A stretch of 63,172 nt of DNA from a bacterium (GTDB lineage Bacteria; Babelota; Babeliae; Babelales; JAUWHS01). The position numbers and the translations under genes were made by a program. The notes below the pieces were generated by a model that saw only the letters and a list, made by a program, of their open reading frames with translations, had not been told where the DNA came from and searched no databases. Positions 61,456 to 62,028 of this stretch are shown one piece after another (the first letter of the stretch is position 1; every line of letters starts with the position of its first letter). Where the stretch lies: assembly GCA_043818275.1 (NCBI GenBank), contig JBDRFY010000062.1, positions 1 through 63,172 of the forward strand, given 5' to 3'.

Positions 61456-62019
61456 TCATAAATAAAATTCCAAAGGGGATTTAGTTCTGCAAACAGGACA
61501 TTCATTCTTATGTTTCAAGGCTTCAAGCAAACACTCCTTGTGAAAAGCATGTCCACATTTAGTAATAATTAAATTTGGCATATAATCAAGTACCGCAATA
61601 GGCAAATCTTCATAACAAATTGGACAGGAAAAAGTTTCTAAGTCTTTAATTGCTTTAACTGCTTTTAATTCTGCCTCTATTTTTTTTCTTTTTTCGTAAA
61701 GTTCTTCTTCAGTCTTTTGTTTTTTAACATTCAAATCCTCTAGTGCCTGTCCAATCTCTTTTCTCTTCCTTTTAAAATCAAATTCTTTTACTTTTATTTT
61801 TATTGCTCGTGCTTTCTGTTTTTGATACTTATTTTCAAAATCATCTATATTACTTAATTCAGCTATTGGATTATCTAAACACAGTAAATATTTTAATTTT
61901 TTAAAATCAGGCTCATCAATGCTTAAAAGATTATTTTCAAAATACTTTAATTTTTCTTTAATAAGATACTTAAATAATTCTAAATGATTGGGCTGCAGCA
62001 AAATGGCTTCTAATACCAT
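61456..62019 (-). CDS. Coiled-coil protein with a C-terminal RING-H2 zinc finger (eukaryote-like E3 ligase domain), probably 5'-truncated by IS630
   Basis: CPICYEDLPIAVLDYMPNLIITKCGHAFHKECLLEALKHKNECPVCR matches C-x2-C-x19-C-x-H-x2-H-x2-C-x10-C-x2-C. The annotated ATG lies within the IS630 inverted repeat. Confidence 0.65.
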   Translation of the reverse strand: MVLEAILLQPNHLELFKYLIKEKLKYFENNLLSIDEPDFKKLKYLLCLDNPIAELSNIDDFENKYQKQKARAIKIKVKEFDFKRKRKEIGQALEDLNVKKQKTEEELYEKRKKIEAELKAVKAIKDLETFSCPICYEDLPIAVLDYMPNLIITKCGHAFHKECLLEALKHKNECPVCRTKSPLEFYL

Positions 62020-62028
62020 TCTGAATAA

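Follow-up and report, generated by a model that had tools for sequence, protein, structure and literature searches.

RING domains contact and activate their E2 partners through a hydrophobic residue between the first two cysteines, a proline after the seventh zinc ligand and a basic linchpin after the last cysteine. RNF4 adds two features of its own, SUMO-interaction motifs at the N-terminus and a C-terminal tail that supports the active dimer. To our knowledge, Dependentiae are known almost only from metagenomes, and little is understood of how they handle their host cells. They live in obligate association with protists (PMC6561590, PMC4776705), and the papers on their genomes mention ankyrin, WD40, F-box and LRR proteins (PMC4776705, PMC6561590). 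The words “RING” and “ubiquitin” are absent from the main text of PMC4776705; in PMC6561590 “RING” does not occur and “ubiquitin” appears in the reference list only. A characterised RING E3 is available from Simkania negevensis, a chlamydia-like intracellular bacterium that infects amoebae: SneRING (SNE_A12920), whose RING is N-terminal and has atypical ligands (PMC12591485).

The DNA considered here is a contig of 63,172 nucleotides, analysed over its whole length (the window). Close to its right end lies a gene with a C-terminal zinc finger that is a eukaryotic-type RING-H2 by every test run, and an IS630-family element supplies its annotated start codon. The reading we favour, and consider probable, is that of an effector-type gene with a coiled coil and a RING-H2 finger, whose 5’ part was cut off when the element inserted at an intragenic TA, the annotated start being an accident of the IS end.

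A RING-H2 gene on a Dependentiae contig

The window holds ORFs of the size of rpoB and rpoC, rpsI, glmS, radA and six tRNA genes. Its GlmS is 76% identical to that of one MAG and 51–65% identical to many with a Dependentiae, Babeliales or TM6 label, Vermiphilus among them; the DNA comes from a Dependentiae/Babeliales bacterium. The order rpsI-glmS-radA is kept in relatives. Upstream of rpsI, the closest relative has a dksA-like gene, tadA, gyrB and genes for two LRR proteins. The first three of these are absent from the window, and the ATPase gene, the RING gene and the IS listed below are absent from the syntenic rpsI-glmS region of the closest relative. The block 60100–63172 is missing from the syntenic region of relatives and is therefore lineage-specific accessory DNA, made up of the DUF4143 ATPase gene, the RING ORF and the IS. 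Among 70 Dependentiae loci the ATPase has a single relative, 28% identical, which marks it as accessory DNA like its neighbours. An rplM gene had been expected upstream of rpsI, wrongly, as the closest relative is also without rplM there.

60204–61376, plus strand: gene for an ATPase with AAA_14 and DUF4143 domains, convergent with the RING ORF
61456–62019, minus strand: RING ORF, 187 aa, stop codon included in the coordinates
61489–61626, minus strand: RING-H2 zinc-ligand core, C132 to C177, with C3H2C3 cross-brace spacing
61645–61848, minus strand: Lys/Glu-rich long helix, aa 58–125, probably a coiled coil/dimerisation element (composition, AlphaFold)
61849–62010, minus strand: orphan N-terminal region of the presumed remnant, aa 4–57, predicted to be helical with modest confidence

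Elsewhere in the window, intergenic DNA carries two families of palindromic repeats (7517–7714 and 57135–57303; 5598–5822 and 51254–51456). Their arms are 43–60 nt long with about 80–125 nt between them, one family has the core CCGCTCGCCCTGAGCGTAGTCGAAGGG, and they look like REP/MITE-type repeats. Two overlapping plus-strand genes (54397–54723 and 54698–55138) encode a nucleotidyltransferase (Polbeta/NTP_transf_2) and a HEPN-domain protein, arranged as in MNT/HEPN toxin-antitoxin pairs. At 45735–47861 (minus strand) a gene with internal 37-nt DNA repeats encodes a protein of 708 aa that matches WD40/beta-propeller models, another eukaryote-like interaction domain. Three genes are without a Pfam match: the two paralogues at 4024–5538 and 5898–7445 (minus strand), which lie in tandem and share 71–82% nucleotide identity in blocks, and the ORF 52436–53665 (plus strand) for a 409-aa protein, with two tandem 78-nt (26-codon) repeats at 53282–53437. 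The gyrB product of the closest relative (locus L002, 4286–8023, minus strand) is 1245 aa long and is interrupted centrally by a large insert, which looks like an intein.

The initial annotation had read the end of the RING ORF as a RING-H2 signature at nt 61489–61626, and the ligand positions and spacers match this exactly. The zinc ligands are C132, C135, C155, H157, H160, C163, C174 and C177, separated by 2, 19, 1, 2, 2, 10 and 2 residues, and both a regular expression and the ligand count place them within the RING consensus C-x2-C-x(9-39)-C-x(1-3)-H-x(2-3)-[CH]-x2-C-x(4-48)-C-x2-C. Pfam zf-RING_2 scores 45.1 bits against a curated gathering cutoff of 27.3, and a further four RING models exceed theirs, among them zf-C3HC4_2 (38.7 bits, cutoff 27), zf-RING_UBOX (33.8, cutoff 25.2) and zf-C3HC4 (32.1, cutoff 21). 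The prokaryotic family Prok-RING_4 stays below its cutoff of 27 with 15.8 bits; with RING_2 above its own, the domain is of the eukaryotic RING_2 type.

Structure prediction points the same way. AlphaFold2, given an alignment of 38 sequences of RING relatives, returns a pLDDT of about 90 over aa 131–180 (56 for the single sequence without alignment), and the model has a predicted cross-brace RING fold. All of the 50 matches listed by Foldseek against the PDB are RING E3 domains, with RNF4 at the top and RNF125, gp78, RNF38, RBX1, APC11 and TRAF6 among the others. RNF4 is also the source of the best PDB sequence match, its RING giving E = 2.5e-9 (single-domain chains). At the positions of E2 contact and activation the ORF has Ile134 (in CPIC), Pro175 and Arg178 (both in CPVCR); in the alignment of RING relatives P175 never varies and R178 is conserved to at least 90%. 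By analogy with such ligases, action as an E3 on host targets is a candidate function for the product.

The Lys/Glu-rich stretch ahead of the finger had been taken for a coiled coil, and composition and model agree with this. K, E, R and D make up 54% of residues 60–128, and aa 58–125 form one long helix with a pLDDT of 80–90 in the alignment-based model, probably a coiled coil and dimerisation element. Further upstream, AlphaFold predicts helices over aa 2–55 with a pLDDT of 60–75. A leucine-rich-repeat reading of residues 3–61, made by eye, was rejected (Pfam LRR_4, E = 0.084, 13.6 bits against a cutoff of 27), and with helices predicted and LRR_4 below cutoff so was an LRR plus E3 effector architecture of the IpaH/SspH or LRSAM1 kind. 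The LRR proteins of the closest relative have no similarity to the RING ORF. No export signal is visible in what is left of the protein.

No intact paralogue or orthologue came out of either protein collection searched. A word-indexed search of 5.8 billion clusters returned the RING ORF protein itself only, and exhaustive phmmer over 1.84 billion representatives gave 1003 matches, of which the best 150 are nearly all confined to the C-terminal coiled-coil and RING part (about aa 66–187); one weak match among these 150, at 30% identity, reaches aa 14. Residues 2–129 used alone as query had no match even at E ≤ 10, which argues against a weak N-terminus-only match among the rest of the 1003. No exact-protein match is on record for the RING protein, nor for S9 or the adjacent ATPase.

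Among the matches listed, the nearest fingers are 50–65% identical over about 45 aa and belong to metagenomic proteins on ORFan-rich contigs, which also carry genes for dUTPase, peroxiredoxin, an ADP-ribosylglycohydrolase-family protein and similar. Rather than bacterial DNA, these contigs seem to be giant-virus or eukaryote-associated DNA, a hint as to where the RING domain came from; such a source would fit gene exchange among organisms that share protist hosts. The most similar fingers, at L075 6001–6273, L078 5143–5814 and L080 4708–5553, are parts of small proteins, and TARA ocean samples are among their sources.

The IS630 element and its junction with the RING ORF

62013–63170, minus strand: insertion sequence of the IS630 family, 1158 bp long, transposase oriented towards the RING ORF
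62013–62025: terminal inverted repeat ATACCATTCTGAA, the transposase-distal end, adjoining the RING ORF and containing an ATG
63158–63170: terminal inverted repeat TTCAGAATGGTAT, the transposase-proximal end, an inverted copy of ATACCATTCTGAA
62011–62012: TA target-site duplication, inner copy
63171–63172: outer copy of the TA target-site duplication, at which the contig ends
62577–63074, minus strand: transposase ORF A, helix-turn-helix DNA-binding part
62029–62583, minus strand: transposase ORF B, DDE_3 catalytic part
62589–62595, minus strand: A AAA AAG heptamer at the ORF A/ORF B overlap, probable -1 programmed frameshift site
62029–62031, minus strand: TAA stop of transposase ORF B, in the frame of the RING ORF and 9 nt upstream of the ATG
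62017–62019, minus strand: annotated ATG of the RING ORF, inside the IS terminal repeat

The element that the initial annotation had recognised by its end at 62013–62025 is borne out by the inverted copy at the other end, by TA on both sides and by its transposase. NCBIfam NF033545 (the IS630 equivalog; cutoff 100) scores 100.4 bits on ORF A and 150.5 on ORF B, Pfam DDE_3 reaches 106.6 bits, and HTH_33, HTH_32 and HTH_23 match the N-terminal part. The inverted ends measure 13 bp, or 15 bp with the TA included. Further copies were found with a degenerate pattern of the IS end (L001, JGI metagenome) and through exact-protein matches (L072, L074, two ENA assemblies). The samples with the IS are JGI 3300014656, ERZ27247128 and ERZ928008. 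All are 1158 bp long with at most two mismatches and lie at two other sites in three metagenomes, which makes three distinct insertion sites: that in the window, that shared by L001, L072 and L073, and that in L074. TA stands on both sides of the element in the window, in L001 and in L072, and its boundary is fixed because the second copy (L001) has the same ends between the same dinucleotides. The IS630 element is real and recently active.

In L074 (1–1274, with the IS at 72–1229) the flanking dinucleotides are TT...AA and not TA...TA. Two explanations fit: this copy has a normal TA duplication and is 2 bp shorter (TACC...GGTA), or it differs in its terminal bases.

In all four copies (4/4) two ORFs, overlapping at A AAA AAG, make up the transposase, and the -1 frame is open across the site. 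Conservation of this layout suggests programmed -1 frameshifting and not a dead copy.

At the junction the sequence reads ATG GTA T|TA GAA. Codons 1 and 2 and the first base of codon 3 are IS DNA, the TA target duplication completes codon 3, and native sequence runs from codon 4 onwards. The observation that the annotated start lies inside the terminal inverted repeat thus holds: with the ends fixed by the second copy, ATG 62017–62019 belongs to the IS. No start codon lies between it and the in-frame stop at 62029–62031. Other in-frame candidates are TTG at codons 7, 96, 139, 164, 168 and 183 and ATG at codon 147.

The sequence that would adjoin the outer end of the IS, or an empty site, did not turn up. 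The IS-end pattern found 0 cases in genome_contigs and 0 in viral_contigs, and in metagenome_contigs one unrelated insertion with no adjoining flank. The 5’ sequence of the RING ORF had 0 matches in viral_contigs, and the flanks of the other IS copies are not present within the window.

Probable truncation and its alternatives

Truncation needs the fewest assumptions, since the reading frame stays open as far as the TA and no native start that is credible and backed by a Shine-Dalgarno sequence lies after it. On this reading a Dependentiae (Babeliales) bacterium would have carried a eukaryote-type gene for a protein with a coiled coil and a C-terminal RING-H2 finger. Its product would bind host E2~ubiquitin and stimulate ubiquitin transfer, by analogy with the dimeric ligases RNF4 and RNF8. 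The recently active 1158-bp IS630 element would then have entered the coding region at a TA and severed the 5’ part, presumably with any export signal or substrate-binding module that it encoded. What is left, a 3’ remnant of about 185 codons, would happen to be in frame with the outward ATG of the terminal repeat (ATG GTA T plus TA), so that a first-ATG rule, and evidently also the stored gene call, yields a 187-aa protein that starts in the IS. The gene would once have been longer and its remnant would be at best weakly expressed. Together with truncation itself, we hold it probable that the start in the IS is a by-product of the insertion and not the native start. As a warning for annotation, a start codon inside an IS terminal repeat would then mark a truncated gene rather than a native protein.

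The in-frame ATG calls for no special design. Within the genes of the window, 41% of TA dinucleotides stand at codon positions 2–3, the phase in which the IS ATG would be in frame, and coincidence is a sufficient explanation. Since both ends of the IS carry the same outward ATG-GTA-T, its orientation is immaterial.

Several observations stand against truncation. The contig ends at the outer TA and shows no continuing ORF, an end that we ascribe to the behaviour of the assembler at a multi-copy repeat and an invariant TA with several continuations. No intact homologue with a longer N-terminus was found. The remnant ORF is without a disabling mutation, which does not discriminate between the readings because the insertion looks recent. 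Finally, a 187-aa protein made of a helical region, a coiled coil and a RING is a plausible stand-alone architecture. The earlier proposal that the IS sits in the 5’ part of a longer gene therefore stands in part: the open frame and the want of a Shine-Dalgarno-backed native start speak for it, and the failure to find an intact homologue speaks against it.

Could the truncated gene still be expressed, by transposase read-through and re-initiation at the IS ATG after the TAA, as a shortened protein beginning M-V-L? The initial annotation had named a start codon supplied by the IS end as its second option, and the position of the transposase stop adds a detail to that option. Transposase and RING ORF lie on the same strand, a consensus scan found no minus-strand terminator-like site between them, the TAA and the ATG are 9 nt apart in the same frame, and the ORF is intact. 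However, the TAA is reached only after the -1 frameshift in the transposase, which would leave few ribosomes for re-initiation. The absence of a ribosome-binding site noted by the initial annotation also counts here, as no G-rich Shine-Dalgarno lies in the 25 nt upstream of the IS-borne ATG, whereas about 28 of the 42 long ORFs in the window have one; nor did the consensus scan find an outward promoter-like site in the IS end. With an in-frame ATG expected by chance at the frequency given above, we think this outcome unlikely, if still worth keeping in mind.

A wider proposal is that the IS restarts translation of the genes it truncates, through its outward ATG-GTA-TTA, which on the distal side lies 9 nt after the in-frame transposase stop. 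Read from the flanks at the two other insertion sites, the IS-borne ATG opens a 37-codon ORF (L072 flank) or runs into an immediate stop, and these sites, with the TA phase statistics, rule out a general role for it. We give this proposal very little weight. If true, effector variants with shortened N-termini would be co-expressed through the IS in a bacterium that depends on its host, the present case being a “headless” dimeric RING ligase.

Alternatively, the gene could be nearly whole: its native start, for example the TTG at codon 7, would lie at or beside the insertion, and the IS in its 5’ UTR or first codons. That TTG is in frame, small RING proteins of 90–220 aa are common among the closest RING relatives, and no longer homologue was found. 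Against this, the 13 nt of native sequence before codon 7 (TAGAAGCCATT) contain no Shine-Dalgarno-like motif, ATG is the start codon of nearly all the long ORFs examined in the window, and the frame is open upstream to the TA; a complete gene is improbable. Least credible by far is a RING ORF of non-bacterial origin, joined at the repeat by chimeric assembly or by contamination with eukaryotic or giant-virus DNA: the closest RING domains do come from viral- or eukaryote-like contigs and the ORF has 27.7% GC against 31.5% for the window, but this value is inside the local range of 25–35% in the window, the ORF has a bacterial ATPase gene on one side and the IS on the other, in a continuous contig with rpsI, glmS, radA and rpoBC, the junction is a clean TA and IS end, and other Dependentiae MAGs also encode RING-type proteins.

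Comparison with known systems

The probable truncation of a RING gene by an IS630 element joins two known kinds of thing, a bacterial eukaryote-like RING and an IS-disrupted gene, and there is no new mechanism in it. The mobile element is an ordinary member of its family. Like IS630/Tc1/mariner elements such as ISY100 (PMC2170065), it encodes a DDE_3 transposase with an N-terminal helix-turn-helix, and with the IS630 family it shares a length of about 1.15 kb, short terminal inverted repeats and the TA target duplication. Unlike in the family examples, the transposase here is split by the probable -1 frameshift at A AAA AAG.

RING E3 folds had been described as rare in bacteria. This holds, yet there is precedent in at least one other Dependentiae MAG and in the RING E3 of Simkania (PMC12591485). 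In 1.3 Mb of sampled Dependentiae loci, one RING-type ORF passes zf-RING_2 and two are borderline:

L057, 11943–12332: Dependentiae RING-type ORF, zf-RING_2 34.7 bits, above threshold
L045, 14119–15249 and 15301–16479: Dependentiae RING-type ORFs, just below Pfam thresholds

By eye, these proteins have signal-peptide-like N-termini, whereas the start of the RING ORF is not signal-peptide-like, a contrast that counts in favour of truncation; they are not homologous to it outside the zinc finger.

The RING of RNF4 (PDB 4ppe, 3ng2, 4ap4) is the closest described finger, top in both the PDB sequence and the Foldseek comparison. The two share a long first loop and the pattern ...T-x-CGH-x-F...CL...LK...CP-x-CR-x-K, and in both the domain lies at the extreme C-terminus and ends in a short aromatic or hydrophobic tail (FYL here, YI in RNF4). 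They differ in the ligands, RNF4 being C3HC4 and the RING ORF C3H2C3 (RING-H2); outside the RING there is no similarity, SUMO-interaction motifs are not evident in the RING ORF, and the 70-residue coiled coil is absent from RNF4. A long helix directly before a C-terminal RING is found instead in dimeric E3s of the RNF8/TRAF6 type. RNF8 chain 4orh_H aligns with the model over 121 columns including the helix, at 25% identity and an rmsd of 11.5 A, and the FHA or TRAF domain of these ligases is absent from the RING ORF. By analogy with them the product may dimerise, but it is not a member of the RNF4 or the RNF8/TRAF6 protein family.

For Dependentiae, a canonical RING-H2 protein with an RNF4-like finger would be an added candidate ubiquitin-ligase effector. 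The nearest functional precedent is SneRING, as the RING E3 of an obligate intracellular, amoeba-infecting bacterium; its published description sets it apart from the product described here, in which a fully canonical RING-H2 stands at the C-terminus.
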